The notes beneath the pieces were generated by a model, which was not told the DNA's origin, ran no database searches, and saw only the letters and a list, made by a program, of their open reading frames with translations. DNA of 64,000 nt, taken from an uncultured Gammaproteobacteria bacterium. Lineage in GTDB: Bacteria; Pseudomonadota; Gammaproteobacteria; UBA9214. Of the stretch, positions 15,481-64,000 are shown piece by piece; within the stretch, counting starts at the first letter, position 1; each line of letters starts with the position of its first letter. The stretch is from assembly GCA_963773065.1 (NCBI GenBank), contig CAVYZN010000033.1:37414-101413 (forward strand), given 5' to 3'. A program made the translations under genes and the position numbers.

Positions 15481-15523
15481 CATTTCCAGTGTCGGAAATT
15501 CATCGGATTGACGAGGCATAGCA

Positions 15524-20993: not shown

Positions 20994-21057
20994 CAATGTG
21001 CTTGCAACCCGGGTTGTGCCCGGTACACTTTGCGAAGGATTACGTGTGGAGCACCCG

Positions 21058-21390: not shown

Positions 21391-21659
21391 TTGTTTGGTC
21401 TAATCGAGACGAGAACCCGGGGACCGGTCAGAAGGAGCCGCCTCCCTGTTAGGATTTTTAGGGAAATGAGCTGCTCGCCTGTCTTAGGCGGCAGGCGACC
21501 AGCATCATAGCCAGCGGCAACCACCGCAAACCCATAGGGAGCGCCGTAAAATCGTGAACATTCATTCTCGACACTCCCGCCATGATCGCTGCGGTCACCT
21601 GAACCCGCCGGACACCCTGGTCTTCATTCAGGATAAACGCGCCATATCATCGATACCCT

Positions 21660-22070: not shown

Positions 22071-22145
22071 TTCAAAACGTGTTTAGAGTGGTTTAACCTG
22101 ATGACCATCGATCCTAACTCACAAGGAGATAGCCAGAGATGAGGC

Positions 22146-22880: not shown

Positions 22881-22999
22881 CACAAGAATCAGTCGCGGAA
22901 CGTACACATGAATGCCCGGTTTTTATGGGAGCCACACCGGGTATTCTCACGGTGTTCTGTTTTTGAAATCCTTGGCGCCTCGGCGGTGAAGAATTCGGG

Positions 23000-23411
23000 C
23001 TAGAAGACCGGTTCCTCGAGATTGTAATCAAGCGTTTTCTCGGCAAGGATTTTACCGTGTTGCAGCCATGATAACCACGGTCCAGGATCCGGGCCGATCC
23101 GGTGTCAGGACCTTGCTTGACCAGACACGAGAGCGCGGACCATCGACATGGAACCGAGCCTCGCTTACCACCTCGCCTCTGTATTCCCATCTGTGTGTTA
23201 CGACCTGGCCTGGGAGGTTCCTGAATTCGGTAAAGCAGAAAATCCGCTCTATCGACCCATTGAGTTCGGTCAGATTATCCACCGGCTCCTGGTCCTCAAT
23301 GGCGGTGGTGAATTGTGCGCGTGCCAAGGGATTGCCGCCCGGGGACGGGTCAGCGGCGTAGATGGTTGCTGCAAGGAGAAGGGGAATGACAGTGACCAGA
23401 GTCCTGTACAT
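23000..23411 (-). CDS. DUF2914 domain protein, 3' frameshift
   Basis: Signal peptide; RAQFTTAIEDQEPVD, FTEF, VTHRW and RVWSSK...GSWTV. Confidence 0.75.
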
Positions 23412-23483
23412 GTCGAAAGACCATCACATTTGACAGTGCTTACATCAAAGCACGATGGCCGCGCTGGGTCTGTGATGCGAATC

Positions 23484-23978
23484 TCATGCGGTAAGGGGAT
23501 GATGGAACCAATAACTCATTTGACGGGGCGACATGCGTTTCCTGCGTCCCTCGAAACTGGCGATGGCCTGCACGATCTGGTCATAGGGCAGGTTTTCGAT
23601 TTGCGCATACCGTTCAAGCGCCTCACATGCCAGACCATGGATGTTGCCAACCGTACTATCTTGCGCCCTGTCAAGATGCAGCAGCTTTTGCAGTCCCAGC
23701 AATCCCCCGATCTGCACTCTGATTTCCTTGGCGTGAGGCAGTGGTCCGTCGGCATGGGTGAGATGCAGGGAGAAGCGCGCATTGCGGCGCATGGCATCGA
23801 GCAACTCGATACACAGGGCATTGCCCTCGTCCGACTTGCAGGCTACGCCTTCACGGTCCGCAAGATTGAAGCGTGCGGATAGTACACAGCCGCAGCGTCG
23901 CGAGCCGATCGCCTTTTCAAATATACAGCGGCGCTGGTTAAGCGCCTGGTAGGTTGTCCGGTATTCCTGTTCTTCCAC
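23484..23978 (-). CDS. Cys-rich conserved hypothetical protein
   Basis: 164-aa ORF with CIFEK..RRCGC..ADREGVAC...C cluster. Confidence 0.7.
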   Translation of the reverse strand: MEEQEYRTTYQALNQRRCIFEKAIGSRRCGCVLSARFNLADREGVACKSDEGNALCIELLDAMRRNARFSLHLTHADGPLPHAKEIRVQIGGLLGLQKLLHLDRAQDSTVGNIHGLACEALERYAQIENLPYDQIVQAIASFEGRRKRMSPRQMSYWFHHPLTA

Positions 23979-24036
23979 GATTTATGTCACGGCATGAAGT
24001 GGCGCTGGATGATCCCGGGCAACGAGGCCATGGCTG

Positions 24037-24276
24037 TTAGATTTCCCATTCCTTGAGTATCGGCTTTTCCCGGTGTTCGAGCAGGCGCTGTTCCGCCTCG
24101 GGCTGGTTGTCGGCGAAGATGATTTTGTAGATAAAGTCGGCGTCCTTGGATTGGGTCGTGCGCAATGCCTTGACCTCGTTTTTTGCTTCTCGGTAGTTTT
24201 CATGTTGCCCAGTGAATTCAAGCGACCGGGCAATCGCCGTTTCTCCAGGGATGATCTTGTAAATGTAGTAGGGCAT
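24037..24276 (-). CDS. Small hypothetical protein
   Basis: 79-aa ORF (MPYYIYKI...KPILKEWEI), co-oriented with the next gene. Confidence 0.65.
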   Translation of the reverse strand: MPYYIYKIIPGETAIARSLEFTGQHENYREAKNEVKALRTTQSKDADFIYKIIFADNQPEAEQRLLEHREKPILKEWEI

Positions 24277-24629
24277 GGCAAGGGTCCGGTAATTATGGTC
24301 GGTGAGAATATGAAACTTATGACTAGTATAACAACGTCATTATTACGGGCTCCAGGTTCACCGTATTCATGGCGGCCGCGGTGCAGGCGCTTGTATCCCC
24401 ATTTCGTGATTATGGCTGTAAGTTGTGTGAGCATATCGAGTCGTTGCACCATCGAGGCCAACCCGGGGTTGCCGGGTTCTGACTATCATATCCCATATCA
24501 ACACTTCATTCTGAAAATAGCCGGTGGACAGTATGTGCGCTTTGTCATACATGGGTGAAGAGACGTACCGGAACGGCCCGCCTTCGCATTCATGTTCGGG
24601 CTTAGGACGTGCAATGGTGTTAGCCATTC

Positions 24630-24931
24630 CTAGCCGCTTTCCAGAACAATACTGACGACCCGGTTGTTGTACAGCACCACGCATCCGGTTTGTCGCGAGA
24701 TGCCGTCTTCACTATAGTCAAAGGTGTAGGTGCGCTTCAGTCCATAATCACCACTGTCGCGGTAATAGGGCCTGATAGCCTGCAGCGAGACGGTCCCGTC
24801 GAGCAATTGCAGTCCCTGCCGCCTGCAGGAAGCCCGTGCGATTTGGATGGCAATATCGCGGCACTTCAGACTCACCAGCCAAAACCAGACCAGCAGGCAG
24901 ATGAAAATCAGTAATGTGATTGACGACATAA
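24630..24931 (-). CDS. DUF3301 family membrane protein
   Basis: N-terminal TM; CRRQGLQLLDGTV and RTYTFDYSEDG..R.TG. Confidence 0.75.
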
Positions 24932-25139
24932 CATCAATACTAAGGCAATGTCTACGGATGAAAACCACTACGCGACATGTTACCCGCCACAACCATCATC
25001 GATAGGCGGACAGATTGAAGGGTTATGTGTCTGATTTTCCTTGTGGATACTGGGAAATGTTTACGTCTCGACGGGAGTGACCTGCTAGAATGTAACTTGC
25101 CGATGTAGGTCTAGATTAATCAAAGGTGGTCCAGGGAGC

Positions 25140-25541
25140 ATGTCAGCACTCACATCAGAAGACCGGGGTCATCTGGGCCGCATGGTCGTCACCATGCTGG
25201 ATGAATGGGGCATCAAGGCTTCCGACCAGGTGAACATCTTGGCGTTACCGGAAGGAACTCCGACTAGGATGCTGCGCCGCTATCATGAAGATACCCCGCT
25301 GCCGGATGTGCCGGCGGTGATGCAACGGGTCGAACACCTGTTGGGTATTGCCGATGCGCTGCGCACCACCTTTCCCCGCAACTCCAATATCGGTGTCATG
25401 TGGCTGAAGCAGCCCTGCAAACGACTGCGCAGTCGCCGGCCGCTGGACATCATGGTGGAGGGCGGATTGAGTGGTCTCATCACCGTCCGCACCCACCTCG
25501 ACTGCTCCTTTGCCTGGCGCGAATCCGAGCGGAAAGATTGA
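25140..25541 (+). CDS. Xre/MbcA/ParS (DUF2384)-like antitoxin-domain protein
   Basis: LDEWGI...QVNILAL HTH-like N-terminus; WLKQP...RRPLDIM..GG C-terminal signature. Confidence 0.7.
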   Translation: MSALTSEDRGHLGRMVVTMLDEWGIKASDQVNILALPEGTPTRMLRRYHEDTPLPDVPAVMQRVEHLLGIADALRTTFPRNSNIGVMWLKQPCKRLRSRRPLDIMVEGGLSGLITVRTHLDCSFAWRESERKD

Positions 25542-25820
25542 CGCTTACCAGGCGAGAGACATCAATAATTGATTTCAACGATGACCTGACAAAGTTGGAT
25601 CACGGGAAACAAAGACGGTTTATCAACGTTACTGGCAAGTATCGAGCTTCCCCCTGCACAGACATAGGCCACGGATCCCTTGCGTGAGCGCGGCCATGTC
25701 GTGATGTTCGCAGGGGCTATTCTCGTTGGCGGCGGCGCACCAGCTTGTAGCTGGTGATATCGCCGCAGAATTCCGCAATGATCGGCGGTTAGACTAATTA
25801 TAGCCCGGGGCCAGCAGAGT

Positions 25821-26171
25821 ATGAACAAGCCAGGGATTCGGACCGCCATACCCAAGCGCCGTTACAAATACGGTGAATTCACCGTTGTGGTGCTGGGAGA
25901 TATCGAAAGCAGTGACGGTATCGACTATCGCTATATCATGGCCGTGGTGAAGGGAGCGGATCCGGCCCCCGGGCTCTATCTGACAGCGGAGAAGGCCGGC
26001 AAGACGGGCCCGCAAACCGACTATACTATGCGTATGTTCATGCAGGATGGCGCCGCGGTGATCGCGACATCCCCGGCATGGGGGGAACTGGATGCCTTCG
26101 TACAGGAGGGATTGGAGATCGTGAGCGAGATGCTGGGACTGTCCGACGAGGTTACCTACCAGTTGCTGTAG
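25821..26171 (+). CDS. Hypothetical protein
   Basis: Clean 116-aa ORF; no recognised motif. Confidence 0.65.
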   Translation: MNKPGIRTAIPKRRYKYGEFTVVVLGDIESSDGIDYRYIMAVVKGADPAPGLYLTAEKAGKTGPQTDYTMRMFMQDGAAVIATSPAWGELDAFVQEGLEIVSEMLGLSDEVTYQLL

Positions 26172-26183
26172 AAGCGTAGAGAG

Positions 26184-26477
26184 ATGAAGAAACAGGTACG
26201 CAGGCGGTCGATTGTGTTGCTGGTATTGTCATCAGCGCTGTGGACCTCAACCCTGCAGGCCTTCTTCTGTTTCTCCATGGGCGGGGGGAACAGGCACAGG
26301 GACGGTTATTATCCCGTACCACCGCCTTACGGTGGATTCAGAGCCGGTGGTTATCTGGCCTTACCCTACAGCTACAGCCCGGTAATGCTGGAACCGATCA
26401 TCACACCCGCTGAAACCCGGAATGTGGAGTTGCCTATCCCGGTAGCCCCGGTTCCGAAGCAGCATATATTCCATTGA
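26184..26477 (+). CDS. Secreted Gly/Tyr/Pro-rich small protein
   Basis: Signal peptide ending LQA; mature FFCFSMGGG...YYPVPPPYGG. Confidence 0.55.
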   Translation: MKKQVRRRSIVLLVLSSALWTSTLQAFFCFSMGGGNRHRDGYYPVPPPYGGFRAGGYLALPYSYSPVMLEPIITPAETRNVELPIPVAPVPKQHIFH

Positions 26478-30827: not shown

Positions 30828-31975
30828 CTATTCAAAGTAGAGCAGGGCCTCATCCACGATGCGCCGCCAGATGGAACCTTCGTTGACACCCTGCAAGGCG
30901 ACCAGATTCTGTCCGGCGATGACCGCATCACCCAACTGGACCTGCACGGCGCCAAGTGGCTGTCCTTTGCTTAGCGGGGCCATGATCCGGTTGTTGATGG
31001 TCATGGAGGCAGCCAGCGCCTTGTACTGGCCACGCGGCACGGTCGCATAGAGCGGGCTGTCGAGACCGAGTGATACCGTGTCGGATTTCACCCTTCCAGA
31101 CGCGCGCGCTCGCGAGTTGCTTGCCTGCCTCATACAGTTTATGCGTCTCGAAGAAACGGAAGCCGTAGTTGAGCAGGGCCTGACTGGCGTCGGCGCGCGC
31201 GTTCTCGCTCGCGGTACCGAGGACCACGCTGATCAGGCGCATGTCGTCCTTCTTGGCCGAGGTTACCAGGCAGTAACCGGCCGACTCGGTGTGCCCGGTC
31301 TTCATGCCGTCCACCGTCGCATCGCGCCACAGCAGCTTGTTGCGGTTGTATTGCGTGATGTCGTTGTAGGTGAACTCCTTCTGGGAATACCACTTGTAGT
31401 ATTCCGGAAACTCCCGGATGATCGTCGCGGCAAGATGGGCGATGTCGCGCGCCGTCATGTGATGCTCGGGGTCCGTCAGGCCGGTGGAATTCATGAAGTG
31501 GCTGCCCTTCATTCCCAGTGTCTCGGCATGCCGGTTCATCAGGGCGGCAAAGCTCGTCCTCGCTGCCGGCGACGTATTCGGCCAGCGCCACCGTGGCGTC
31601 ATTGCCGGACTGGATGATCATGCCTTGCAGCAGATCCTCCACGCTGACCTGCTTGCCGACCTCGACGAACATGCGTGAGCCGGGGGTGCGCCACGCCGTT
31701 TCGCTTATCGTGACCATATCGCTGAGGGAGATTTTCCCCGAGCGCAGCTCCTTGAAGACCGCATAGGCGGTCATCAGCTTGGTGATGCTGGCGGGATCGA
31801 CCGGCTTGTCCGCGTCCTGCTCGGCGATGATCCGGCCGCTGTCGAAATCCTGCAGGATAAATGCCTTGGCCCCGGTTGACGGCGGCTGGGGGATCGGCAG
31901 GGGTTCGGCCTGGAGGCTTGAAACGGCAAACAGCAGCAGGATGGCGGGTAACAAGCGAATGAGTCTATACGGCAT
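30828..31975 (-). CDS. D-alanyl-D-alanine carboxypeptidase (PBP5/6), frameshifted
   Basis: PASITK (SxxK), SGND and KTG motifs; PBP5 C-terminal domain. Confidence 0.92.
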
Positions 31976-34070: not shown

Positions 34071-35195
34071 TCACGTCGGTAGCAGTTTGCGATGCGTCTG
34101 TATCGACATGAGGATACCAAAACCCGCCATCAGCGTAACGATGGATGTGCCGCCGTAGCTGATCATCGGCAGCGGCACGCCGACCACGGGCAGCAAGCCG
34201 GTCACCATGCCCGTGTTGACGATCACATAGACAAAAAACGTCATCGCCAGACTCCCGGCAAGCAGGCGCGTGTAGGTGTCCTGCGCCTGGATGGCGATGA
34301 GGATGCCGCGTACCACGATGACGATGTAAAACGCAAACAGCACCATGATCCCGATGAAACCAAACTCCTCGCTGAGTACGGCAAAAATGAAATCGGTCGA
34401 GCGCTCCGGAAGGAAATCAAGCTGGGACTGGGTTCCGTTCAGCCATCCCTTGCCGAACAGGCCACCGGAACCAATGGCGATCTCGGACTGGATAATATGA
34501 TAACCGGTGCCGAGCGGGTCATTCTGCGGGTTGAGGAAGGTGATCACGCGCTGGCGCTGGTAGTCGTGCATGAAATGCCACAGCAGCGGGGCGGCGGCGG
34601 CGGCGAGTGCGGTCAGTACAAACAGCAGGCGCCATTGCAGCCCGGCCAGGAACAGGGCGAAGAAGCCGGCGCTGGCGATGAGCAGCGCCGTTCCCAGGTC
34701 CGGCTGCTTGACGATCATCAGTGTGGGGACGATGGTCATCACGATGCTGGCGAGCAACTGGAAACGGTTAGGCGGCAGGGATGCATCGGCCAGGTACCAG
34801 GCCACCATCATGGGCACGGCCAGTTTCATCATTTCGGATGGCTGGAAACGGATGATATACAGGTCCAGCCAGCGTTGCGCCCCGCTGCTGATCTCGCCCT
34901 CGACCAGAACCGCCAGCAGCAGCAGGATGCCGGCCGCGAAGACCCAGGGCGTCATGCGTTGCAACATACGGGGTGTAACCTGCGCCACCGCGATCATGGC
35001 GGCAAAGGCAAGGCTCAGGCGCAGCAACTGGCGCACGATCAGATCCATATCCCTGCCGCCGGCGCTGTAGAGGACCAGCAATCCGATGGCCGATACCCCG
35101 ATCAGCGCGACCAGCAGCGGCGCATCGATGTGCAGGCGATACTGCCATCCGCGCTGGCTGGCGTCATCCCGGCTGGTTGAAATTCCGGTGCTCAC
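34071..35195 (-). CDS. rodA: Rod shape-determining protein RodA
   Basis: GAQRW, FQPSE, QPDLGT, FLPERSTDFIF and ISYGGTS; GTG start at 35195 overlaps mrdA TGA. Confidence 0.94.
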   Translation of the reverse strand: MSTGISTSRDDASQRGWQYRLHIDAPLLVALIGVSAIGLLVLYSAGGRDMDLIVRQLLRLSLAFAAMIAVAQVTPRMLQRMTPWVFAAGILLLLAVLVEGEISSGAQRWLDLYIIRFQPSEMMKLAVPMMVAWYLADASLPPNRFQLLASIVMTIVPTLMIVKQPDLGTALLIASAGFFALFLAGLQWRLLFVLTALAAAAAPLLWHFMHDYQRQRVITFLNPQNDPLGTGYHIIQSEIAIGSGGLFGKGWLNGTQSQLDFLPERSTDFIFAVLSEEFGFIGIMVLFAFYIVIVVRGILIAIQAQDTYTRLLAGSLAMTFFVYVIVNTGMVTGLLPVVGVPLPMISYGGTSIVTLMAGFGILMSIQTHRKLLPT

Positions 35196-37043
35196 GTCGG
35201 TCCTCCCAGCAGGTAACTGTCCATGATGCGCGCGTGCGATGGGCGCGGCCACGGAAGCTCCGTGGCCGCCGTGTTCGACGATGACGGCCACGGCGATCTT
35301 CGGGTCGTCCACGGGCGCGAAGGCGATGAACAGGGCATGATCGCGCAGTTTTTCACCGATTTGCTTCGCATCGTATTTTTCCTCCTGCTTGAGGCCATAG
35401 ACCTGTGCCGTCCCGGTCTTGCCCGCGATCTTATAGGGACTGTCGATGCCGATGTGCCGGGCCGTGCCACGGGCGCTGTGCACGACATCGACCATGGCAT
35501 TGATGACCGTGTCCCAGTTTTCCGGATCTTGCACGGAGATGGTTTCCTCGATCTGCAGCAGATGCGGCAGCAGGGCATCGCTGCCGGCTTCCTGCTCCGC
35601 ATGGACGATGGATGGCCTGATACGCCGGCCGCGGTTTGCCAGCGCCGCCGTCGCCGCGGCCAGTTGCAGGGGCGTGGCCATGAAAAACCCCTGGCCGATG
35701 CCGGTGATGATGGTCTCGCCGGGGAACCAGGGCTGGTTGCGACGTTCGCGTTTCCACTGGGCTGACGGTAACAGACCCGGCAATTCTCCCTGGATATCGA
35801 TGCCGGTGGGGCTGCCGAACCCGAAGTGCGCGAGATAATCATGGAGCCGGTTGATGCCCATCGACAGGGCGAGATCGTAGAAATACACGTCACAGGACTG
35901 GGCAATCGCCGTACTGAGGTTTACCGTGCCGTGACCGGTATGCTTCCAGTCGCGGTATTTGCGCGTGCTGCCCGGCAACATGAAAAACCCCGGGCAATAG
36001 GTGCTGGATCTGCCGCTGGTTATGCCCTGTTCCAGTCCCGCCAGTCCCATGAAGGGTTTGACGGTGGAGCCCGGCGGGTATTGTCCGCGCAAGGCGCGGT
36101 TGAACAGGGGTTGCTTCTCGTCATCCTTGAGCGCCTTGTAGTCGACGTATTCGATGCCGTTCACGAAAGGATTCGGGTCGTAGGTTGGCATGCTGACCAG
36201 GGCCAGGATGTCGCCGGTTCTGGGGTCGAGCGCGATCGCGGTGCCCGTATAGTCGCCAAATGCCTTTTCCGCGGCATCCTGCAAGCGCGAGTCGAGCGTC
36301 AGGTAGAGGTTTCTCCCGGCTATGGGCGGGGTGCGTTGCAGCACCCGCAGGATGCGCCCCTGCGCGGTGGTCTCCACCTGCTGCACACCGACGCTGCCGT
36401 GCAGCACGCTCTCATAGGATTTCTCGATGCCGATCTTGCCGATGTGGGTCGTGCCGTTGTAGTTGGACGTGTCCAGGTCCTTCAGGGCGTTTTCATCAAT
36501 CCGCCCGACGTAACCCAGCGCGTGCACCGCGAGTTTTCCCAGCGGGTAATGACGCGCGAGGCCGGCCTGGATATCGACGCCCGGGAAGCGGTACCGGTTG
36601 ACGGAAAAGCGTCCGACCTCCTCGTCACTCAGGTGAAAGCGCAGCGGCACGGCTTCAAAGCGCGGCTTGCTGCGCAGGAGTTTCTCGAACCGGATGCGGT
36701 CGGTCTCCCGAACATCGATGATCTTTGCGAGCTCCGCGAGGGTCGCCTGCATGTCATCGACCTGTTCCGCGGTGATTTCCAGCCGGAAGGAGGGCAGGTT
36801 GTCGGCGAGCAGGATGCCGTTGCGGTCATAGATCAGGCCGCGATTGGGGGCGATGGCCTGGAGCTTTACGCGGTTGTCTTCCGAGAGCGTCGTGAAGTGT
36901 TCATGCGCGATGACCTGCAGGTAGAAGAGCCGGCTGAACAGCGCCACCAGCAGCAGGCCGCAAAACACCAGCAGAATGATCGCCCGGGTGGTGAACAGGC
37001 GATATTCCAGGAAGTGGTCCTTTAGCGTCAGTTGTCGCAGCAT
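35192..37043 (-). CDS. mrdA: Penicillin-binding protein 2 (indel near 35240 fuses it to rodA in the ORF track)
   Basis: PGSTVK, SCD and KTGT motifs; natural end ARIMDSYLLGGPT* in a shifted frame. Confidence 0.94.
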
Positions 37044-43379: not shown

Positions 43380-44572
43380 ATGATGAAAATCATCGCCGAT
43401 GAGAACATACCCGCCGTGGCGCCAGGCGTTTGGCACGCTGGGGGAGGTGACGCTGCTGCCCGGGCGGAGCCTGCGGGCGCGGGACGTGCGCGATGCGGAT
43501 GTCCTGGTGGTGCGTTCGGTGACGCGTGTCGGCGGTGAGCTGCTCGATGGCTCCCGTGTGCGCTTCGTCGGTACGGCGACCATCGGCTTCGATCATGTGG
43601 ACCGGGATTACCTGCGGAGGCGGGGTATCGGGTTTGCCGCGGCGCCGGGCAGCAACGCCACTTCGGCCGCGGAGTATGTGATCAGCGCGCTGCTCGCGCT
43701 CGGCGAACGCGAGGGTTTTAACCTCGCGGAGCGCACGGTCGGGATAGTCGGCTGCGGCAATGTCGGCGCGCGCGTACGCGCCAGGCTGGCGGCGCTGGGC
43801 TGTGACTGCCTCGTCAATGACCCGCCGCTCCGTGAGCTGGGCGGCCACGCCGACTTTGTCGGGCTGCCGGATATCCTGCGGGCCGACATCATCAGCGTGC
43901 ATGTGCCGCTGGAGAAGGGGGGACGGCATCCCACCTGGCACCTCTTCGATGCCGCCGTTCATGCGGCGGATGAAGCCGGGCGCCATCCTCGTCAACACCT
44001 CGCGCGGCGCCGTGGTCGATAACCCGGCGCTGGATGCGCTGCTTGCCACACGTCAGGATCTCTCCGTGGTGCTGGATGTCTGGGAAGAGGAACCGGCGAT
44101 CAATACAGAACTGCTGCAAAAGGTCGCGCTGGGGACGGCGCACATCGCCGGCTACAGCCTGGACGGCAAGCTGCGCGGCACGGAGATGATCTACCGGGCC
44201 GCGTGTGATTATTTCGGGTGCAGGCCGCAATGGAACGCCGGCGCGGTGCTGTCCGCCGGAACGAGGCTGGACCTGAGGGGCCCGCAAGGGGGTGATGCCT
44301 TGGCCCGTTTCCGCCGGGCCGTATTCCATGCCTACGACATCCGCGCGGATGATGAACGGCTGCGTGGACTGTTGACTCTGCCGCCGGCGGAACGACCGGC
44401 CGGTTTCGACCGCCTGCGCAAGGAATATCCGGTGCGCCGCGAATTCGCCGCGACGACCGTGATCATCGACGGCGATGCCGCAAGGCTGGAGGAATTATTG
44501 CGGGCCGTCGGTTTCGAGGTGATCGTCGGCAGCGCCTACCCGGCGGGTTATGACACGGGCTCTCCGGGCTGA
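43380..44572 (+). CDS. pdxB: 4-phosphoerythronate dehydrogenase, frameshifted
   Basis: MKIIADENIP, VRSVTRV, TATIGFDH, APGSNA, GCGNVG, HIAGYS and FDRLRKEYPVRRE. Confidence 0.93.
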
Positions 44573-52650: not shown

Positions 52651-52687
52651 AATAAGCCGGCCCCACAGCGGTGGGGGCCGCGGGCCC

Positions 52688-52710
52688 AGGTCATTCTGCC
52701 GTCCCAGCCA
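52688..52710 (+). repeat. Duplication of the tRNA-Gln 3' end and leader
   Basis: CTGCCGTCCCAGCCA at 52636-52650 and 52696-52710; AGGTCATT at 52569-52576 and 52688-52695. Confidence 0.75.
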
Positions 52711-52778
52711 TGCACGTCGGCGCCGTTGCGATGAGCCGGTACAATAACCGTTCCGTTAACTACGAAGCTGAGTCGATT

Positions 52779-53753
52779 ATGAATGGTTTGTCTGCGTCCG
52801 ATTCCGATTCCCGAATGATGGTGTTTTCGGGTAACGCGAACCGCAAACTGGCGCAGGATATCGTGAACCAGTTGCGCCTGAACCTGGGCAACGCGCTGGT
52901 CGGACGCTTCAGTGACGCGGAAGTCCATGTCGAGATCTTGGAGAACGTGCGCGGCAGGGACGTCTTTATCGTCCAGCCGACCTGCGCGCCCACCAACGAC
53001 AACCTGATGGAGTTGCTGGTGATCATCGATGCGGTGCGCCGTTCCTCGGCCTGGCGCATCACCGCGGTGATCCCGTATTTCGGCTATGCGCGCCAGGACC
53101 GGCGCCCGCGCTCGGCGCGCGTACCGATCACGGCCAAGGTGGTGGCACAGATGATCAGCACCGTGAAAGCCGACCGGGTGCTGACGGTGGATCTGCATTC
53201 CGACCAGATTCAGGGATTCTTCGATATCCCGGTGGACAATGTGTATGCTTCGCCGATACTGCTGGGCGATATCTGGCGGCAGAAACACCCAAACCTCGTG
53301 GTGGTCTCGCCCGACGTCGGCGGGGTGGTCAGGGCGCGCGCCCTGGCCAAACGGCTGGATGATGCCGAGCTGGCGATCATCGACAAGCGCCGGCCCAGGC
53401 CGAATGTCGCCAAGGTGATGAATATCATCGGCGAGGTCGAGGGACGCAGTTGTGTCATGGTCGATGACCTGGTGGATACCGCCGGCACCCTGTGCCGGGC
53501 CGCCGAGGCCCTGAAGCGGGAAGGGGCGGTGCGCGTGGTGGCCTATTGCACCCACCCCGTGCTCTCCGGCAAGGCGGTGCAGAACATCGAGGCGTCGGTC
53601 CTCGATGAACTGGTGGTAACGGATACCATCCCGTTGTCGGAGAGCGCGCAGGCCTGCAAACGCATCCGGCAGTTGAGCATTGCCACGATGCTGGCGGAGA
53701 CCATGCGCCGCGTCAGCATGGAGGAGTCCGTCAGCTCGCTTTATATGGATTGA
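52779..53753 (+). CDS. prs: Ribose-phosphate pyrophosphokinase
   Basis: [24 protein letters not shown] and DDLVDTAGT motifs. Confidence 0.96.
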
Positions 53754-53802
53754 ACCACGGTTAACCGCGGACGCGTCCCTCTCCGGTGACGCGTCCGTAC
53801 CC

Positions 53803-53832
53803 TGTCTTCGCCTGGTCGCGGGTGAAGATACA
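53803..53832 (+). promoter_or_regulatory. Putative L25 (rplY) leader hairpin
   Basis: TGTCTTCGCCTGGTCGCGGGTGAAGATACA stem-loop with the CTGGTCGCGG core I recall upstream of proteobacterial rplY. Confidence 0.5.
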
Positions 53833-53869
53833 ACGAACGCCGCAAGGCGTGTTTTTCTGGAGATGAAAC

Positions 53870-54541
53870 ATGGCTGTCAGCTTTGAACTCAATGCGGAAC
53901 CGCGCAATGACACGGGTAAGGGTGCGAGCCGCCGCCTGCGTCACGCGGGCAGGGTGCCCGCCATCCTGTACGGCGGCAGAGAACAACCTCAGGCGCTTAC
54001 CCTGGATCACAACGAGGTGCTGCGCAGCCTCGAGCACGAGGCGTTCTACTCGCACATACTCACCGTCAACATCGGCGGCACGGGGACGCATGCGGTCCTG
54101 CGCGACCTGCAGCGCCACCCGAGCAAGCCGTACATCATGCACGTCGATCTGCAGCGCGTAACCGCAACCGAGAAGCTCCGCATGCACGTGCCCCTGCACT
54201 TCCTCGGCGAGGACATCGCCCCGGGTATCAAGCTCGGCGGCGGCATGGTCATGCACGAACTCATCGAAGTGGAAGTCGAGTGTCTGCCCCAGGACCTGCC
54301 GGAATACATCGAGGTGGATATCTCCGCACTCGATGTGGGCGATGCACTGCACCTCTCCGACCTTAAGGTCCCGCCGAGCCTGACGCTGACCGAACTGGCC
54401 CGCGGCGCGGATCACGACCTTGTCGTGGTCTCGATTCATGCCCGTCGCGCCGGCGGCGAGGAAGAAGAAGAGAGCGCCGCCGCCCCCGCCGCCGAGGGTG
54501 TGCCGCCGCCCGCCGAAGGCTCAAGCACCGTTAAGCCTTGA
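53870..54541 (+). CDS. rplY: 50S ribosomal protein L25/Ctc
   Basis: [21 protein letters not shown] and HVDLQR; long Ctc form. Confidence 0.96.
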
Positions 54542-55116
54542 CGGCCATACGGCTCGTTGCCGGGTTGGGCAATCCCGGAGCAAAGTACGAACAGACCCGG
54601 CATAACGCCGGGTTCTGGTTTGTGGACGAGGTCGCGCGCCGCTACGCGGGCCAGTTCCGCCCCGAGACCCGCTTCGGGAGCGATGTGGCAAGTTGTATCA
54701 TCGCGGGACAGGAGTGCCGCCTGCAGAAACCGCTGGAGTTCATGAACCGCAGCGGCCGGCCGGTTGCCTCCCTCGCCGCCTTTTACCGGATTCCGCGCGA
54801 TGCCATCCTCGTGGTGCATGACGATCTCGATCTGCCGCCCGGCACGGTGCGGCTCAAGCAGGATGGCGGTCACGGCGGGCACAACGGCCTGCGCGACCTG
54901 ATTCCCAGCCTCGGCGGCAACGATTTTCCGCGGCTGCGTTTCGGCATCGGACATCCCGGCCATCGCGACGACGTGGTCGGTTATGTGCTCAGGCCCGCCG
55001 CGCGTGATGAGCGGGCGGCCATCGATGCGGCCATCGCGGCGGCGCTCCAGGTGTTGCCCGATATCATCGCCGGCAACCTGGATGCCGCCATGAAGGAGTT
55101 GCATACCGCCACGTAG
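54538..55116 (+). CDS. pth: Peptidyl-tRNA hydrolase
   Basis: GLGNPG..Y..TRHNAG, FMNRSG, HDDLD and GGHNG motifs. Confidence 0.96.
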
Positions 55117-55176
55117 GGTGCGCCGTGCGCACCGTAACTGTTTAGCAACCTCCTGGTGCGCAGGGCGCACCCTACG
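55112..55176. repeat. Second GTAG-type REP doublet (different family)
   Basis: CGTAGGGTGCGCCGTGCGCACC ... GGTGCGCAGGGCGCACCCTACG. Confidence 0.82.
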
Positions 55177-55184
55177 GGATAACT

Positions 55185-56276
55185 ATGAGCGTCAAATGCG
55201 GCATCGTCGGCCTGCCCAACGTGGGCAAGTCCACCCTGTTCAACGCCCTCACCGAGGCGGGCATCCAGGCGGAGAACTATCCGTTCTGCACCATCGACCC
55301 GAATATCGGCATCGTGCCGATGCCGGATCCGCGTCTCGACCGGCTGGCGGAGATCGTCAAACCGCAGAAGGTCCTGCATACCACCATGGAGTTCGTCGAT
55401 ATCGCCGGACTCGTGGCCGGGGCGTCGAAGGGCGAGGGGTTGGGCAACAAGTTCCTGGCCAACATCCGCGAGACGGACGCCATCTGCCAGGTGGTGCGCT
55501 GCTTCGATGACGACAACGTGGTGCACGTCAGCGGGCGCGTCGATCCGGTGCGCGACATCGAGGTCGTCAACACCGAACTGGCGCTGGCCGACCTGGAGAC
55601 CGTGGAGAAGGGCATCACCCGGACCGCCAAGGCCGCCAAGAGCGGCGAGAAGGAGGCGCGGGCGCGGCTGGCGCTCCTCGAAGCCGTGCGCGCGCACCTG
55701 GACACCGGCCGCCTGGTCATCGGCATGGGCCTGGACGAGGAACAGCAGCAGGCCATTTACGACCTGCACCTGCTCACCGCCAAGCCGGTGATGTACGTCG
55801 CCAACGTCAGGGAGGACGGTTTCGAGGACAACCCCTACCTGGAATCGGTGCGGCGCATCGCAGTCGAGCAGGGGGCCGAGACGGTTGCGGTGTGCGCCGC
55901 CATCGAGGCCGAATTGACTGCACTGGAGGCCGCCGACCGTCTGGCCTATCTGGCGGAGCTGGGATTCGAGGAACCGGGCCTCAACCGCGTGATCCGCGCC
56001 GGCTATAAATTGCTCGGCCTGCAGACCTACTTCACCGCCGGTCCCAAGGAGGTGCGCGCCTGGACCGTGAAGGTCGGCGCCACGGCGCCGCAGGCCGCCG
56101 GCGTGATCCACACCGATTTCGAGAAGGGCTTCATCCGCGCCGAAGTCGTTTCCTACGACGACTTCATCGCCTGTCACGGCGAACACGGCGCCAAGGAGGC
56201 CGGCAAGTTGCGCCTGGAAGGCAAGGACTACATCGTCAAGGACGGCGATGTCATGCACTTCCGCTTCAACGTGTAG
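55185..56276 (+). CDS. ychF: Redox-regulated ATPase YchF
   Basis: [22 protein letters not shown] and TGS domain ending FRFNV. Confidence 0.97.
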
Positions 56277-56410
56277 CCGATCTTGCCGGCGCGCCCTCGG
56301 CCGCGAACATCCCGCCGGCTGGCCGGCTCCCATATGCCTCGCATGCGCCTGAAGCAGCAAGAGAACTTGTCCCGGGACGCCATAATCGGGTAATCTGGCA
56401 TCCCCTCCAT

Positions 56411-56487
56411 GGCTACGTAGCTCAGCCGGTTAGAGCACAGCACTCATAATGCTGGGGTCGGTGGTTCGAGCCCACCCGTAGCCACCA
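56411..56487 (+). tRNA. tRNA-Met(CAT), elongator type
   Basis: GGCTACG/CGTAGCC acceptor stem, CAGCA-CTCATAA-TGCTG anticodon arm, GGTTCGAG, CCA end. Confidence 0.95.
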
Positions 56488-56531
56488 AAATAGTCTTTTA
56501 AAATCAGGCCATTACGGTGGCGTCTGAACGG

Positions 56532-57660
56532 CTAGGCTCTGCGCAGTACAACCATTACGGGACTTTTACGGGACTTTTGTCCGCACACCCGGTTGGCGGC
56601 CTCGATGAGGTTCTGTAACTCCGCCGCCGAGTAGTGCGTGGTAATGCGCCCCGACTTGTGTCCCAGCAGATCCTGACGGTCCTCGAATGACACACCGGCC
56701 GCTCGCAAGCGGCGTCCAAAGGTGTGCTTCAGGTCATGAACCCGAAAGGCACGGAATCCTTCCGGGCAATCACGACCAAACACCTTCGGGTACTGCTCCG
56801 CCGCCAGCTGTCGGCTCCGCTTCCATGCGGTGTTGTGCATCCGTGTGATCCGGCGTCCGCGATAGGTGAATACAAACTCGGGATCGCTCCCGCGCTGTTC
56901 CTCAATCACGGACGTGGCCACGGTGTTTAACACCACCAACCGTTCGCTGCCGTTCTTTACCTGCACATCCGGGATAATGAAGACCGAGGTCTCCAACTCC
57001 GGCACCTTGATCTCCCAGTCCCAGCGCAGCCCACAGACTTCCTGTTCCCGGCAGCCGGTATTCACCTTGAATAACGCCATACGCTGCAAGTGAGCCGGTA
57101 ACAAGGGAAACAACAACCGCTGTTCCTCCCAGGACAGTGGATACGGTTTGCGTGCATCCAGGTTCTTGGGTAACTGAATCAGTGGCGGTGTTTCCAGCCA
57201 CGAGAGTCCGTGTTCGTCCCGCCAAAGCCGCGCAGCCAGATTCAATACCCGGCGAACAGCGGCCAGATCGCGACGTGTTGTTCCGCTGCGTATGCCTTGC
57301 TTCCTTCGATCCCGGATATAGGGTTCCAGTGTTCCCATGTGTACCTGGGTCAATGGTAGATGCCCGATATACGGATCCAGCAATCGCAAGGCTTGTGCGT
57401 TACGTTCCAGACTCCTCAACTCACCGGCATCCATGGCATCTTCCAGATACTTGGTCGCTGCCTGCCGAAACGTTCTCTCTGGTCTTACTCCGTAGACCCT
57501 TGCTTGCCGCAGCTCTTCAATGCGCCGTGCAAGATAGGCTTCCGCTTCCCCGAGGTTGCGCGCGCCAGTGCTTTCGCAAAGGCGGCTTCCCCGGATTTGT
57601 TTGTCGATGTGCCAGATCCCGTGTTGCTTAACGAGCCCTGGCGTCCTATTTACGTCCCAT
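56532..57660 (-). CDS. Tyrosine recombinase/phage-type integrase (1-nt insertion just after the start)
   Basis: TGCR, VKNG, HDLKHTFGRRL, LLGH and TTHY catalytic motifs; N-terminal arm domain MGRK-RTPGLVKQHGIWHIDKQI. Confidence 0.92.
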
Positions 57661-57662
57661 GT

Positions 57663-59202
<1,540 letters not shown>

Positions 59203-59339
59203 ACTTAGCTTTTTCGAAGCCGCGAATCGGCTAAGTTGGGTTAATGTGACAAGGCGGGCCAAATCTGCCGCGAAATAGCTTGGGAAATTGCCACTGAATT
59301 AATCTGAAAGACAACACCACTGTATACGTGAGCGCCTCC

Positions 59340-59415
59340 TGCGGATCGGTGGCCGACAGCGTTTGCAAGCTGAACACCTTGCGGCCCGCCTGCGGACCCA
59401 CCGCGATGCGGTAGA
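59340..59415 (-). pseudogene. IS91/ISCR-family transposase remnant
   Basis: YRIAVGPQAGRKVFSLQTL matches a conserved segment of IS91-family transposases. Confidence 0.6.
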
Positions 59416-59582
59416 CCACCACCATCCGTCACTACTATTCGGTGCGCTATTCGCGCAATCGCGTGCTGGAAACCAGTTACGAAACGGAGTAGCCCCCGTT
59501 TCGGTCCCCTGTTAGCAACTGCCGATGCCGATGGCCGCGTTTACTTCGATTTGACGCAGCTCCGCCATCAGCCCAATGGCGG

Positions 59583-61289
59583 CTAGTTGACGCCGGTCAG
59601 TGCGTACTTGATGAGCTGACCCATTGTGACGTTTCGCCCGCCAATAAGCGGTTCCCAATTCAGATCCTGTAGCAGATACGAATGACCATCCCCATACACC
59701 AGCCCGATCAGGGTTTCGGCGACGATGCGACCACCCACCGGTCCCAGCGTCACAGGCTCTTCGTCGCCCTTGCTGCCGGGTTTGGATGCGCGCTTGTACC
59801 AATAGTGCTGCGCTTCCGCCAGGATGTAGTACCAAAGCGGCGCGTTGTCCGCGAACGACGAGTCGATCTCAGTGATGGATTTGGCCGCCTTCATATCAGC
59901 AACAATGGCCTTGCCCACCTTCAAGTCTTTGTCAGCAATCACAGGCAGGCCCATGGCGCGCGCCACGGTTTGACCACTTGGCATTTGTAATGACAAGCCG
60001 CGTAGCAAGTTGCGCGCCGCAAGGTTGGCAGGGTCGTTAATCGCGTCGATGGGCTTGGCTTGTAGCTGTTCGATAGTAAGTGGTGGCGTCAGTGGCACCA
60101 CTTTGGAAAACTCCGGCAAGAAACCCAGTGGATTAACCAGCGAGGTGTCGATCTTATAAGCCGGTTGCGCGCGCTGCATGCCACCCATGGCACCCGAGCC
60201 GTCGATGTCGAAGAATAGACTCCAGTCAATCGCCCATTGGCTTGGGAATTCGCCAAAGCCATTGAGCGCGCGCTGTGCCACACCGGCAAACACAAAGAAG
60301 CGGCCTTCGAGTCCGCGCGCCTTCTCATCGGGAGTTGCAACAAGTGGATCGTCACCGCCTTTGAGTTCGGTGTTCAGCCGGTAAATCGGCCGTACCATCG
60401 AATGGCCGAAGCGGTAGGCCGCTACCGAAAATTCCAGCGGTATGAACGGCGTGTTGTGCCAATGGAAGAACTGCAGCTTGGGTTTTTTTTCAGCGGCGCT
60501 TGCGCTCGACAAGCGATGCGGCAGTATCTCGTTAATAAGTTCCGTGCCACAGATGCGCGGCAAGAAGTCGTTGAGCACTACGTACTGGTAATGCCAGCGC
60601 ACCATGCGCTGCACGTCGTCAAAGGTCGCGCCTTTTGGCATAAGGTCGTCGACAAACCGGTTATGCAGCTGCAAGAAAGCGCAATGCAACTGCGAGACAA
60701 TCACGTTTTCGTCGTTACGCTTGTCGCCGATTAGCGCACGAGCCGGCGTGTTGGGGTTCTCGGGGTCACGGTAGCGCGGCAGGTCACGAGAGGGCGTGGG
60801 TTTGTTCAGCGCCAACAATGGCTTACCCAGACGAAACTTGTCACCGAGATACATGTAAGGCTGGTCGGATGGTCCACGACCATATAGGCTGTCCAGATCG
60901 AGTCGTGGCGTACGGAAGTCAACCAAACTTTCTGGATCGTTTTGCTGCATCAAGCTTGAAGCGGGATCAAAAGTGATGTCATGGTCAATGAATTGCCCCA
61001 AGTAGGTGTATCCCGCATCAATGCCGGCGTTTTCTTCGTCATCTTGAATGTGATCAGCTGTTTCAAGCGCGGCCTTGGGTTTGGGTGGATTGTCATCGGC
61101 ACCTTCTGCAGGTGCGGTCATGGCCTGACCTAGCGCGAGCAGCGCGGGTTTTAGATGGACGGCCACAGGCAATTCGCGAAACATTCTGCCAAAGCGGCCT
61201 TCAAATAGTGAAGACTGTCGACGCACATCGGCGCCACGGATACCGCCACCATGCGGCGTGAATGAACTTTTGCTCATGCTTGATTTCAT
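59583..61289 (-). CDS. Heme peroxidase, peroxidase-cyclooxygenase (animal-type) superfamily
   Basis: Distal GQFIDHD, GDKRNDEN and RWHYQ; proximal AYRFGHSMVR; C-terminal PLWYY and LGPVGGRIVAE; AAAGGAG RBS. Confidence 0.9.
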   Translation of the reverse strand: MKSSMSKSSFTPHGGGIRGADVRRQSSLFEGRFGRMFRELPVAVHLKPALLALGQAMTAPAEGADDNPPKPKAALETADHIQDDEENAGIDAGYTYLGQFIDHDITFDPASSLMQQNDPESLVDFRTPRLDLDSLYGRGPSDQPYMYLGDKFRLGKPLLALNKPTPSRDLPRYRDPENPNTPARALIGDKRNDENVIVSQLHCAFLQLHNRFVDDLMPKGATFDDVQRMVRWHYQYVVLNDFLPRICGTELINEILPHRLSSASAAEKKPKLQFFHWHNTPFIPLEFSVAAYRFGHSMVRPIYRLNTELKGGDDPLVATPDEKARGLEGRFFVFAGVAQRALNGFGEFPSQWAIDWSLFFDIDGSGAMGGMQRAQPAYKIDTSLVNPLGFLPEFSKVVPLTPPLTIEQLQAKPIDAINDPANLAARNLLRGLSLQMPSGQTVARAMGLPVIADKDLKVGKAIVADMKAAKSITEIDSSFADNAPLWYYILAEAQHYWYKRASKPGSKGDEEPVTLGPVGGRIVAETLIGLVYGDGHSYLLQDLNWEPLIGGRNVTMGQLIKYALTGVN

Positions 61290-61336
61290 GATTCACTCCT
61301 TTCTGTGATGTGAACGAATACGAGGTCACTAAACAA

Positions 61337-63807
61337 TTAAGCGAGATGAATCCAGCTCGCCACCGAGGGCACTCCCTGCTGCGTCACGATGAACAGCATG
61401 TACCAGCCGGGTGGGGCGAGGTTGGCATTGTCGGTGAGAGTGGCTTTGATGGTTCCGGCTGCTTGCGAAACGATGTTCAAATCGACCAGGCGCTGACTGC
61501 AATCGAATGAATGGGTGGTCACGCAGTTTCTGATGATACTCACCCAGCGAATGTTGCCGGCATTGGGCGAGATGATGGTGATAGTTTGTCCGTAGTTCCA
61601 CTGCGGCGGCACCGCGTTGATCACCGGCCGTGCGCCTTTGAACAAGTACGGCGGACTGAAAATTTCGACGCGCATTTCTTCTTCGGGATCGGGTGGTTCC
61701 CATTTGACGGATTTTCCGCCTTCGGGGTTACCGCCTGCGGCAACCACGCGTCCGTCAGGCAACAACACCGCAGTGGAGTGATACAGACGCGCAACGCTGG
61801 CAGTGGCCATTAAACGCCAGCTGTTTGTCGAGGGGTCGTACAGCTCTGCTTGGCGGCGAGCTAAAGGCTCATCTTCCTGCTTGAGCGAACCGCCCGAAAT
61901 AAATACGGTGTGATCGGGCAGCAGCACTGCATTCAAATGCAGTCGCGCCAAACAGAGGGCGGGTCCTTCCACATAAACGGGATTCGCTGCATTGAGATCG
62001 ACTATGCTGACTTTATCGGTAGCATCGGTCTTGTCGGGCTTGCCCACCGGTCCGCCGCCGATGACCATGACTTTCTGATCCTGCGCCGGTGGCAGCAGCA
62101 CGCTCGCGGACTGATTGCGAAAATTCGGTTCGAGCAAATCCGGCACTGGCTGCGTTTGCGCCGGATTGTTGGCGAGATTGATGATGCACGGTGTGGTGGG
62201 TCGCGCATCGTCCATACGTCCGCCCGAAAAAAATATCCGGCCGTCCTTGAGTAGGAACAAATGCGCATACAGCGGCAGGCCTTGAAACGTTTGCGGATCG
62301 CCGGCAATGTGTTTCAGCTGCCAGGTGTTGTTGGCGGGGGTATAAATTTCCAACGCATCGTTCAAGGCATTGCCCGCTTCGGTGAGACCGCTGGCGGCCA
62401 GTACCTGGCCGTCGGCGAGTGAAATCAACGTCGGATACCAGCGGCCATGCGCCATGCTGGCGGCAAACGTCCATTTTTGTGTATCCGGATTAAAGATCAC
62501 GCAATCGTTGCGGCCGAGGAACAAGGGGTTGTCGGTGTATAGCAGCGTGCCACCCGCGACCAGCAAGCGACCATCGACCAGGAATTCATGACCGGCGCAG
62601 AAAAAATCAAAGGGCTTGCCGTTCGCGGTGTGCAGCGTCGCCGGGAAAAAGAAGTTGGCATTGTTCGACGAGGGAGCAGTGGGATCCCACACTGCACTCA
62701 TTTGAACACCTTGTGCTTCATTGCCAAACAGCGGGCTTTCAAACCGCGTGCGGCTGCTGCCGGAACCGGCAAAGAACAACACCTTGCCCTTGGGCAAGAC
62801 GGCGGTGTGGACGGCGAGGACACCGGAATGAAAACCCTGCAAGTCCCAACGACCGTATTGCGCGGGATCGTGCTGCAGGTCGAGTATTTGATAGAAGCCC
62901 GCGTTCTGCGGCGGCGGATTATCGACCAGCAACGCAAACAACTTCAGCTTGCCGTTGAGCGTGGCCACGGCAATGCCGCCGCCCTGGTTCTCCCACGAAA
63001 ACCAATGCGGCACGCCCAGCCAGTCGCTCCAGTTGTTGGTGTTGCCGTCGGCATCGATGTTCCTGCCGATGCGGAAGAATGCTTGGTTCCGATTGTTGGG
63101 TGCATTGTCGACATGAAACACAATCAAGTCGGTGGTGCCATTGTTATCGAGATCGGCAAGGGCAATGCCGGCGCCCTGGTTTTCCCAGGGAAACCAGTCC
63201 GGAACGTCGACCCACGCATTGCTCCAGCCGCCGGTCACGTTGCCCAGTGCATCCAGCTTGCGGCCGATGCGATACACGCCGCGATTGGCGGCCAGTCCGT
63301 TGTCGATCATGAATATGAACAGATCGCAGCGCCCCTGCGCATCGGGCCGACCCAGCGTGATCGCGGCATCCTGGTTCTCCCATGAGAACCAGTCGGGCAC
63401 TTCGATCCAGGGCGTCCAGCCGCCGGTTACATTGCCCAGTGCATCCAATTTGCGACCAACACGAAACAGACTGCGATTTTTTTGCGGCGTACTGTCGACC
63501 ATCAACACCACCAGGTCTTGCTGGCCATCTAGATCGAGATCGGCGACGGCGAGCCGGCCCCCTGGTTTTCCCATGAGAACCAGTCGGGCACTTCGACCCA
63601 CGGTGTCCAATTGCCCGCGACCGCACCGTCCGCCGCCAGCGTTTTACCGACGCGATACATCCCGCGGTTTTGACCATCGGGGTTGTCGATCATGAACACA
63701 ATGAGATCGAGTGTGCCGTCGTTGCCAAGACTGGCCACGGCAATATCGGCCCCCTGGTTATCCCACGAGAACCAATCCGGAATCGGCATGAATTCGTTGG
63801 CGGGCAT
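61337..63807 (-). CDS. Copper-radical oxidase (galactose oxidase-like kelch + DUF1929) with N-terminal Trp-rich repeats; frameshift near 63560
   Basis: FCAGH, RWYPT, RLYHST, TTHSF active-site motifs and APPGWYMLF; start MPANEF with AAGGAG RBS. Confidence 0.9.
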
Positions 63808-64000
63808 CGCGGCACTCCTTGGTCCTTGAACTGCGCTGATCGACGCGCAGTCCCAAATGGTGGCCACCTCAATGGCGTGGCGACCATAACAACTCAACCG
63901 CCGCCGTGTAATCGGCATTCAACACCGGCTGACGCATTAAGCAGACAGCGCTGGATTTGTGCGCTAGTAAGATTAAACGTCCTTTTTCCCCAAGTCCAGA

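Follow-up and report, generated by a model that had tools for sequence, protein, structure and literature searches.

The window analysed here, a stretch of 64,000 nucleotides (nt) from an uncultured Gammaproteobacteria bacterium (contig CAVYZN010000033.1, positions 37,414 to 101,413), carries at its right-hand end a gene for a copper-radical oxidase (CRO) followed on the same strand by a gene for an animal-type haem peroxidase. The evidence supports the view that the two genes move together on mobile DNA as a cassette, and on balance we favour, with some reserve, the reading that this cassette is horizontally mobile and that its products act as a coupled redox pair. Coupling is favoured because single-chain fusions of the two domains exist, because the genes adjoin in three different orders and across three or more peroxidase lineages, because CRO-like genes that accompany the peroxidase tend to lie very near it, and because DNA homology with a second locus is limited to the cassette. 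As the preliminary description of this DNA had stated, the two genes are co-oriented, 47 bp apart and each preceded by a ribosome-binding site (AAAGGAG at 61302-61296, 6 nt ahead of the peroxidase ATG, and AAGGAG at 63820-63815, 7 nt ahead of the oxidase ATG at 63807). The 47-bp spacer holds no terminator-like hairpin, the five terminator-like sites in 59000-64000 are not above the level of shuffled sequences, and a promoter scan of the same interval returned 0 sites. The genes and their parts are as follows:

61337..63807, minus strand: CRO gene, 823 codons if read through, split by one missing base
62849..63807, minus strand: oxidase N-terminal domain, five FG-GAP-like repeats of ~64 aa (192 nt), identified by Pfam FG-GAP and FG-GAP_3 and by self-matches
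61340..62848, minus strand: oxidase catalytic kelch propeller and C-terminal E-set (DUF1929), with Cys404, Tyr458, Tyr676, His677 and His766
63551..63553, minus strand: 1-nt deletion (frameshift) relative to the database protein P0122, after codon 85
61290..61336, minus strand: spacer between oxidase and peroxidase, 47 bp, holding the peroxidase ribosome-binding site
59583..61289, minus strand: peroxidase gene, 568 aa, ATG start, An_peroxidase

The oxidase is supported as a CRO of the galactose oxidase/glyoxal oxidase family (CAZy AA5), and its predicted active site looks catalytically complete. Its Pfam matches are GO-like_E_set (90.6 bits), several Kelch models, Glyoxal_oxid_N and FG-GAP, and the galactose-oxidase catalytic positions recognised in the preliminary description (FCAGH, RWYPT, RLYHS and TTHSF) are indeed kept: all of the Cys, Tyr, Tyr-His and His positions align with those of Streptomyces GlxA (4unm, E = 8e-75), the closest solved structure. 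Numbered after P0122, an intact 823-aa protein, these residues are C404 (codon 62599-62597), Y458 in the motif R-W-Y-P (62437-62435), Y676 and H677 (61783-61778) and H766 (61513-61511), and each is invariant in 30 of 30 aligned homologues. An AlphaFold model of the oxidase (pLDDT 88.7, pTM 0.90) has five all-beta repeats from residue 1 to about 315, then the propeller and the E-set; in a Foldseek search with this model GlxA came first (TMt 0.72), and the top 27 matches were CRO structures, fungal and Pseudoarthrobacter CROs among them. Look-alikes of residues 1-320 in the ESM Atlas were all FG-GAP proteins, with scores below 0.9 that make them a lead only. Against the NCBIfam GlxA model NF052501 the oxidase scores 378.8 bits, with its best stretch at model positions 260-644; because this is below the cut-off of 800, the protein is, judged by its sequence, GlxA-like in its core but not GlxA. 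The oxidase family comprises 1734 matches with a typical length of 810-823 aa, and its named members come from Nitrospira, Stenomitos, Frankia, Streptomyces, Methyloglobulus and Rhodospirillales, cyanobacteria included.

The assignment of the second protein to the animal-type haem peroxidases likewise holds. Pfam An_peroxidase (PF03098) matches it with 59.1 bits (cut-off 25) over profile positions 143-327 of 530, and Q99, D102, H103, D104, R191, E194 and H296 are invariant in 61 of 61 peroxidases of 44-84% identity, as are Asn427, Arg430 and, towards the N-terminus, His13, Gly14, Gly19, Ser26, Gly34 and Phe37. The distal, Arg/Glu and proximal motifs align with those of lactoperoxidase and of the cyanobacterial enzyme CyanoPOX (8s6c) in a weak profile match (E = 1.7e-5). 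On the model of myeloperoxidase and lactoperoxidase, Q99/D102/H103/D104 would serve on the distal side, R191/E194 as the catalytic Arg and Glu, and H296 as the proximal ligand; Asp102 and Glu194 stand where the halide-oxidising mammalian enzymes have their haem ester links, and their invariance hints at a high-potential haem. All 43 Foldseek matches of the peroxidase model at E <= 0.001 belong to the peroxidase-cyclooxygenase superfamily, although the model is poor and the TM-scores are only 0.3-0.44, and CyanoPOX, myeloperoxidase, lactoperoxidase and DUOX rank above alpha-dioxygenase and cyclooxygenase. NCBIfam has no model for this peroxidase. The family numbers at least 8000 significant candidates, of which the best 120 are 62-100% identical and include sequences from Mesorhizobium, Rhizobium, Undibacterium, Acetobacteraceae and a gammaproteobacterial metagenome-assembled genome; with homologues in the thousands for both open reading frames (ORFs), chance ORFs are excluded.

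Neither protein has a hydrophobic, signal-like stretch at its N-terminus, and on this point hydrophobicity and N-terminal conservation both bear out what had been noticed earlier. Conservation begins at residue 1 in the oxidase family and at residue 13 in the peroxidase family. Since Met1 and Trp12 are invariant in the 30 aligned oxidase homologues, that family starts straight at the first FG-GAP blade, with no signal peptide. In the first 70 residues of the peroxidase, hydrophobicity peaks in a 12-residue stretch at position 42, which lies behind the conserved segment and is not a signal peptide. The lack of N-terminal signals in both families suggests that the two proteins reside in the cytoplasm or are exported by a non-classical route, outside the general secretory (Sec) and twin-arginine translocation (Tat) pathways. 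Most of the GMC oxidoreductase, ferritin-like and phosphoesterase genes that neighbour the peroxidases are also without an N-terminal signal.

That the two genes form a mobile unit, as first proposed from the window alone, is upheld by a second locus, L002. DNA homology between it and the window (78.6% over 4317 nt, window 63834..59570) is confined to the two genes and their spacer, starting 27 nt ahead of the oxidase ATG and ending 13 nt beyond the peroxidase stop, and genes for a MobA/MobL relaxase, a DUF3592 protein and AbiEi/AbiEii flank the L002 pair. Mobile-element genes also occur at two further loci with the peroxidase, ArdC in L046 and a resolvase fragment in L035. The peroxidases of the window, L001 (Thiobacillaceae), L002, L003 (Planctomycetaceae) and L004 (Mesorhizobium) are 79-87% identical, with a gammaproteobacterium among the hosts, and because identity this high spans such a range of hosts, the clade fits recent horizontal transfer between phyla. 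A megablast search of the cassette against plasmids gave no match; protein searches of plasmids gave only distant matches among those listed (oxidase up to 43% and peroxidase up to 40% identity), and among the matches listed (30 of 41 and 30 of 37 records) no plasmid record has both genes in one place. On two Nostoc plasmids a hypothetical protein of ~310-346 aa is encoded after the CRO homologue on the same strand (L081 8494-9426 and L082 8655-9695), and it may be a different conserved CRO partner.

Natural fusions join the two activities in one chain. Five of the 14 long peroxidase relatives returned (P0246-P0250, 1026-1057 aa) are peroxidase-CRO fusions, with An_peroxidase in the N-terminal half, kelch and GO-like_E_set in the C-terminal half, and haem and copper motifs retained in both halves. 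A protein search with P0246 yielded a further fusion of the same architecture (P0256, 1047 aa) and a truncated one (P0257). In P0259 (1034 aa), a single-chain analogue of the GlxA/DtpA partnership of Streptomyces, the partner of a CRO core from the same clade is a DyP peroxidase (GxxDG; Dyp_perox_C 27.2 bits, cut-off 20). That the CRO core has been fused to peroxidases from two superfamilies with no relation to each other would be difficult to account for if the fused partners had no function in common. Other fusions of the peroxidase occur as well: the long relative P0243 carries a transglutaminase-like domain and P0244 an S8 subtilase, and in L003 a subtilase gene (12238-14361) lies downstream of the peroxidase. 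An apparent peroxidase-flavoprotein fusion in L065 was rejected as a gene model in the wrong frame (frame offset 1, branch length 10).

The neighbourhood of the peroxidase was surveyed by a peroxidase-alignment scan of one genome per species, which returned more than 542 relatives, of which the best 80 loci were analysed. The following arrangements bring a CRO-like gene near the peroxidase:

L002: oxidase then peroxidase, the same order as in the window; oxidase 84% identical
L013: peroxidase then oxidase, 24-nt gap
L035: peroxidase, then an ORF that starts with the N-terminus of the oxidase family, at which the contig ends
L061: divergent orientation, frames broken
L046: a 1321-aa CRO of other architecture, 947 bp upstream of the peroxidase
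L026: a 768-aa GO-like_E_set protein, 2.3 kb off on the opposite strand

In L045 a kelch fragment lies 4.1 kb from the peroxidase. Five of the seven CRO-like flank genes are within 1.2 kb of the peroxidase, a crowding that departs from an even spread over 10 kb (binomial p = 4e-4). On a quick peroxidase tree of 83 rows, from which L017, L061 and L072 were left out because they have no single-frame gene model, on which L026 is unlabelled and whose L065 row is a frame artefact to be disregarded, the CRO-adjacent peroxidases require at least three changes of label, that is, at least three lineages. GMC oxidoreductases, too, recur beside the peroxidase, within 3 kb in eight of the 80 loci, and eight of the ten loci with a GMC gene have it within 1.3 kb. 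Both oxidase types meet in L013 (6967-14161, plus strand), where genes for GMC, a ferritin-like PF12902 protein, the peroxidase and the FG-GAP-CRO run in one direction with gaps of -4, 41 and 24 nt, flanked by PLD-like, phosphoesterase and second GMC genes; the trio of peroxidase, GMC and ferritin-like genes recurs in the Bacteroidota loci L031, L036 and L047. Recurrent third genes, about which the preliminary description had asked, are those for GMC, ferritin-like PF12902 (seven loci) and a propeller protein of ~700 aa with or without a lectin domain (six loci), and PLD-like proteins, phosphoesterases and GH31 recur as well, but clustering of the census loci gave no universal neighbour.

In the mechanism that we propose, the oxidase would oxidise an alcohol or aldehyde and reduce O2 to H2O2, and its FG-GAP propeller may serve to bind that substrate, perhaps a glycan. 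CROs as a class oxidise alcohols and aldehydes with reduction of O2 to H2O2, and they lapse into an inactive state from which a one-electron oxidation, supplied by peroxidases, reactivates them (PMC9770985, PMC4736821, PMC11611005). In fungi, a peroxidase encoded in tandem activates its CRO on contact (PMC9770985), and in Streptomyces DtpA consumes the H2O2 produced by GlxA (PMC4736821). By analogy, the lactoperoxidase/myeloperoxidase-like peroxidase of the cassette would take up the H2O2 made by the oxidase, protecting the cell, and its oxidised haem states would maintain the active Cu(II)-tyrosyl-radical state of the oxidase and/or oxidise a second substrate; the output would then be whatever the peroxidase oxidises, be it halide, thiocyanate, phenol or polymer. 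A bolder version, which we think improbable, is that there is a signal-less family of FG-GAP/GlxA-like CROs, intracellular or non-classically exported and teamed with lactoperoxidase-like peroxidases, that constitutes a DUOX-like self-contained oxidant generator and has been spread by mobile elements for the competitive or protective advantage that reactive (pseudo)halogen formation or polymer cross-linking gives. A complex prediction for peroxidase residues 72-568 with the catalytic part of the oxidase (325-823) scored 0.00, which says nothing for or against contact between the two.

The oxidase reading frame departs from the preliminary description, which counted two genes in 59583..63807. 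The oxidase span, 63807..61337, is 2471 nt, a length not divisible by 3: the frame that opens at ATG 63807 ends at a stop at 63531, giving a 92-codon 5' ORF (63807..63531), and the long ORF of 757 codons (63610..61337) is in a different frame. P0122 matches the ATG-63807 frame with 100% identity over 85 residues and then switches to the long-ORF frame, so one base is missing at 63553/63551, and the shifted frame runs into a stop 7 codons on. The DNA repeats of the N-terminal domain are spaced 192, 195, 191 and 192 nt from start to start, the 191 coinciding with the deletion site. Apart from the missing base, the gene is 99% identical to P0122 and has no other stops. Housekeeping genes of the same window are damaged in a similar way: parC (A subunit) is split into overlapping pieces in different frames (8093-9214 and 9183-10352, plus strand) that match profile positions 1-322 and 324-431, parE (B subunit) is broken into two or more pieces (HATPase_c at 6182-6562; gyraseB/Toprim/C-terminus at 7023-8072, plus strand), and the genes for polyprenyl synthase (1637-2284), Ppx (10621-11412), D-Ala-D-Ala carboxypeptidase (31139-31975) and PdxB (43760-44572) are apparently truncated. 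The split essential genes point to an assembly rich in insertions and deletions (indels), and since parC and parE are broken alike and an intact 823-aa protein of 99% identity exists, the oxidase frameshift is most likely an assembly error.

A number of observations weigh against a coupled pair. The preliminary description had made adjacency across genomes one gauge of its proposal, and the homologues prove rarely to be neighbours: a CRO-like gene is within 3 kb of the peroxidase in six of the 80 loci and none is that near in the other 74, a CRO or GMC gene is that near in 13 and neither in 67, and of the 54 loci that extend 3 kb or more on each side, eight have a CRO or GMC gene that near and 46 have neither. 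L001, L003 and L004, the closest other peroxidase relatives, have no CRO neighbour and adjoin rhodanese/dienelactone hydrolase, an S8 protease or nothing recognisable, and the three plasmid CRO loci inspected are all without a peroxidase. Because GMC neighbours are commoner than CRO neighbours, the peroxidase would seem to partner oxidases in general, with no exclusive tie to the CRO, and its pairing with the CRO is facultative. The fusions have Thr in place of Asp before the distal His, their peroxidase halves are 31-36% identical to the window peroxidase, and the five are few in number and form one clade on the peroxidase tree. Within the window no uninterrupted oxidase coding sequence is present, and the AlphaFold model of the peroxidase (19 close sequences) is of low confidence (pLDDT 57.8, pTM 0.67). 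Copper loading and Tyr-Cys formation in the cytoplasm would be unusual for the CRO class, for which, to our knowledge, maturation or activity of a Tyr-Cys copper-radical enzyme in the bacterial cytoplasm has not been described. The scarcity of CRO neighbours, the lack of a universal one, the setting of L001, L003 and L004 and the plasmid loci would all suit a coincidental adjacency of unrelated cargo genes on mobile elements, with the peroxidase doing a job independent of the oxidase; we hold this to be quite unlikely, given the single-chain fusions, the occurrence of three gene orders in at least three peroxidase lineages, the exact fit of the L002 homology block to two genes and their spacer, and the crowding of CRO-like genes within 1.2 kb. 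The functional module put forward in the preliminary description is partly supported, backed by the fusions and gene orders and weakened by the census.

Coupling could also be purely protective, the peroxidase clearing H2O2 from signal-less and presumably intracellular CRO or GMC enzymes with neither activation nor a useful product. The family adjoins two unrelated H2O2-forming oxidase families, GMC and CRO, and the GMC neighbours begin directly with the FAD-binding motif, without a signal; however, a peroxidase requires an electron donor, hence a second substrate would be oxidised anyway, the invariant Asp102 and Glu194, at the ester-link positions of the halide-oxidising mammalian enzymes, exceed what detoxification needs, and covalent fusion to a CRO fits a close hand-over of electrons or H2O2. 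H2O2 removal has been proposed for DtpA (PMC4736821), whereas activation in the fungal pair is independent of efficient peroxidase turnover (PMC9770985); we judge a safety-only role unlikely, while allowing it some real chance. A further possibility, a genuine pseudogene for the oxidase in a pair that is a decaying remnant on an island, would account for the deletion after codon 85 with its early stop and for the adjoining insertion sequence (IS) transposase in two ORFs, but the like damage to essential parC and parE, which points to assembly indels, and the otherwise intact gene make this improbable. Very unlikely, in our estimate, is a weapon or defence module whose oxidants, of the hypohalite or hypothiocyanite type, are aimed at competitors or phage-infected cells, and which owes its mobile spread to this use; it would agree with the carriage of the pair by mobile elements in the window, in L002 (beside AbiEi/AbiEii) and in L046 (ArdC), with the lactoperoxidase/myeloperoxidase-like haem pocket, and with the preference for iodide of CyanoPOX, the closest solved bacterial relative (PMC11776367). 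Against it, a PADLOC-DB 2.0 search at E <= 0.01 matched 0 families to the peroxidase, to the oxidase or to any of four ORFs of the island, there was no sign of a secretion signal or of a delivery gene, and no immunity gene is evident. AbiE is also an ordinary plasmid-maintenance pair. A mobile cassette for a coupled redox pair is the reading that we retain.

Among known systems, the animal enzyme DUOX is a membrane protein in which an NADPH-oxidase generator of H2O2 is fused to an animal-type peroxidase domain. P0246-P0250 and P0256 resemble it in joining an H2O2 generator and the same peroxidase superfamily in one chain, but the generator is a CRO in place of an NADPH oxidase, and the likeness is one of analogy only, with no homology of the whole system. 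The GlxA/DtpA pair of Streptomyces shares with the cassette a bacterial CRO with the same Cys/Tyr/Tyr-His/His set and a Trp before the cross-linked Tyr, and a haem peroxidase, which in Streptomyces uses CRO-made H2O2 (PMC4736821) and in the cassette would do likewise. Unlike GlxA, whose insert (chain residues 111-224) has no counterpart here, the window oxidase has five FG-GAP blades in place of the GlxA N-terminal part; no cslA is visible, the window peroxidase is from a superfamily other than DyP, and whereas DtpA is a Tat substrate encoded elsewhere, the window genes adjoin and both lack a signal. In the fungal Perox-AlcOx pairs of Colletotrichum and Magnaporthe a CRO gene likewise lies beside one for a haem peroxidase, which activates the CRO through a one-electron oxidation, and selection keeps the pair together, but the peroxidase is of the peroxidase-catalase superfamily, the genes are head-to-head, both products are secreted and the CRO is an AA5_2 alcohol oxidase (PMC9770985); the window pair is bacterial, co-directional, signal-less and on mobile elements, and its arrangement is found in a minority of peroxidase loci. 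CyanoPOX is the best PDB match of the window peroxidase by profile and by fold, with distal and proximal haem motifs in common; it is nevertheless very distant (16% identity in the fold alignment), lacks the conserved extra N-terminal segment of the window family, and binds haem non-covalently (PMC11776367), whereas Asp102 and Glu194 are invariant in the window family. Full-text searches, which did not extend to subscription journals, found no description of a bacterial CRO paired with or fused to an animal-type peroxidase, in keeping with the preliminary view that the pairing was uncharacterised, and targeted look-ups in a CRO review (PMC11611005) and a recent CRO survey (PMC11267884) found no such pairing. 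A CRO with a partner peroxidase is already known, from fungi and Streptomyces; the peroxidase superfamily, the FG-GAP-CRO architecture, the lack of signals, the carriage by mobile elements and the natural fusions are new.

The cassette lies in a low-GC island, the visible edge of which is a tRNA gene preceded by prs, rplY, pth and ychF (52671-56276, plus strand); the G+C fraction of the window falls from 0.66 to 0.54 at 56 kb. After the tRNA gene come the integrase, small ORFs, the IS-like element and then the cassette:

56411..56487, plus strand: tRNA-Met (CAT), visible edge of the low-GC island
56532..57434, minus strand: tyrosine recombinase (phage-integrase family), integrase of the island
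58005..59214, minus strand: IS-like element, 29-nt imperfect inverted repeats around two transposase ORFs

The inverted repeats are at 58005-58033 and 59186-59214, and the transposase is divided between an ORF with HTH_32 (58589-59119) and one with rve_3 (58033-58539). The setting described earlier, among IS elements in a tRNA-Met island, is confirmed as to the tRNA gene, the integrase and the fall in G+C, but one IS-like element only was found. The far end of the island is outside the window, and a search of 56380-64000 for a repeat of the tRNA-Met 3' end found none. The interval from the integrase to the IS-like element (57137-58181) holds overlapping ORFs of 86-164 aa without a Pfam or PADLOC match. 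Elsewhere in the window, 12000-26200 has a lower G+C fraction (0.52-0.57), many ORFs without a Pfam match at 21660-26171, and genes for an ArsR-type regulator, histidine kinases and response regulators, and may be a second acquired region. A single 990-aa ORF at 34071-37043 (minus strand) encodes both PBP2 (PBP_dimer and Transpeptidase) and RodA (FTSW_RODA_SPOVE), which reflects either a natural fusion or a stop codon removed by a sequencing indel.

CROs are prized biocatalysts that usually need added peroxidase to remain active. Together with the related fusions, the cassette suggests that bacterial CROs have a natural partner in a third peroxidase superfamily, beside the class-II-like peroxidases of fungi and the DyP of Streptomyces, and the fusions are ready-made single-chain oxidase-peroxidase enzymes. 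The missing signals raise the question whether a Tyr-Cys copper-radical enzyme matures and works in the bacterial cytoplasm. For the very large peroxidase family, which is spread across many soil phyla, the recurrent placement beside CRO and GMC oxidases provides a first testable hypothesis of its role.

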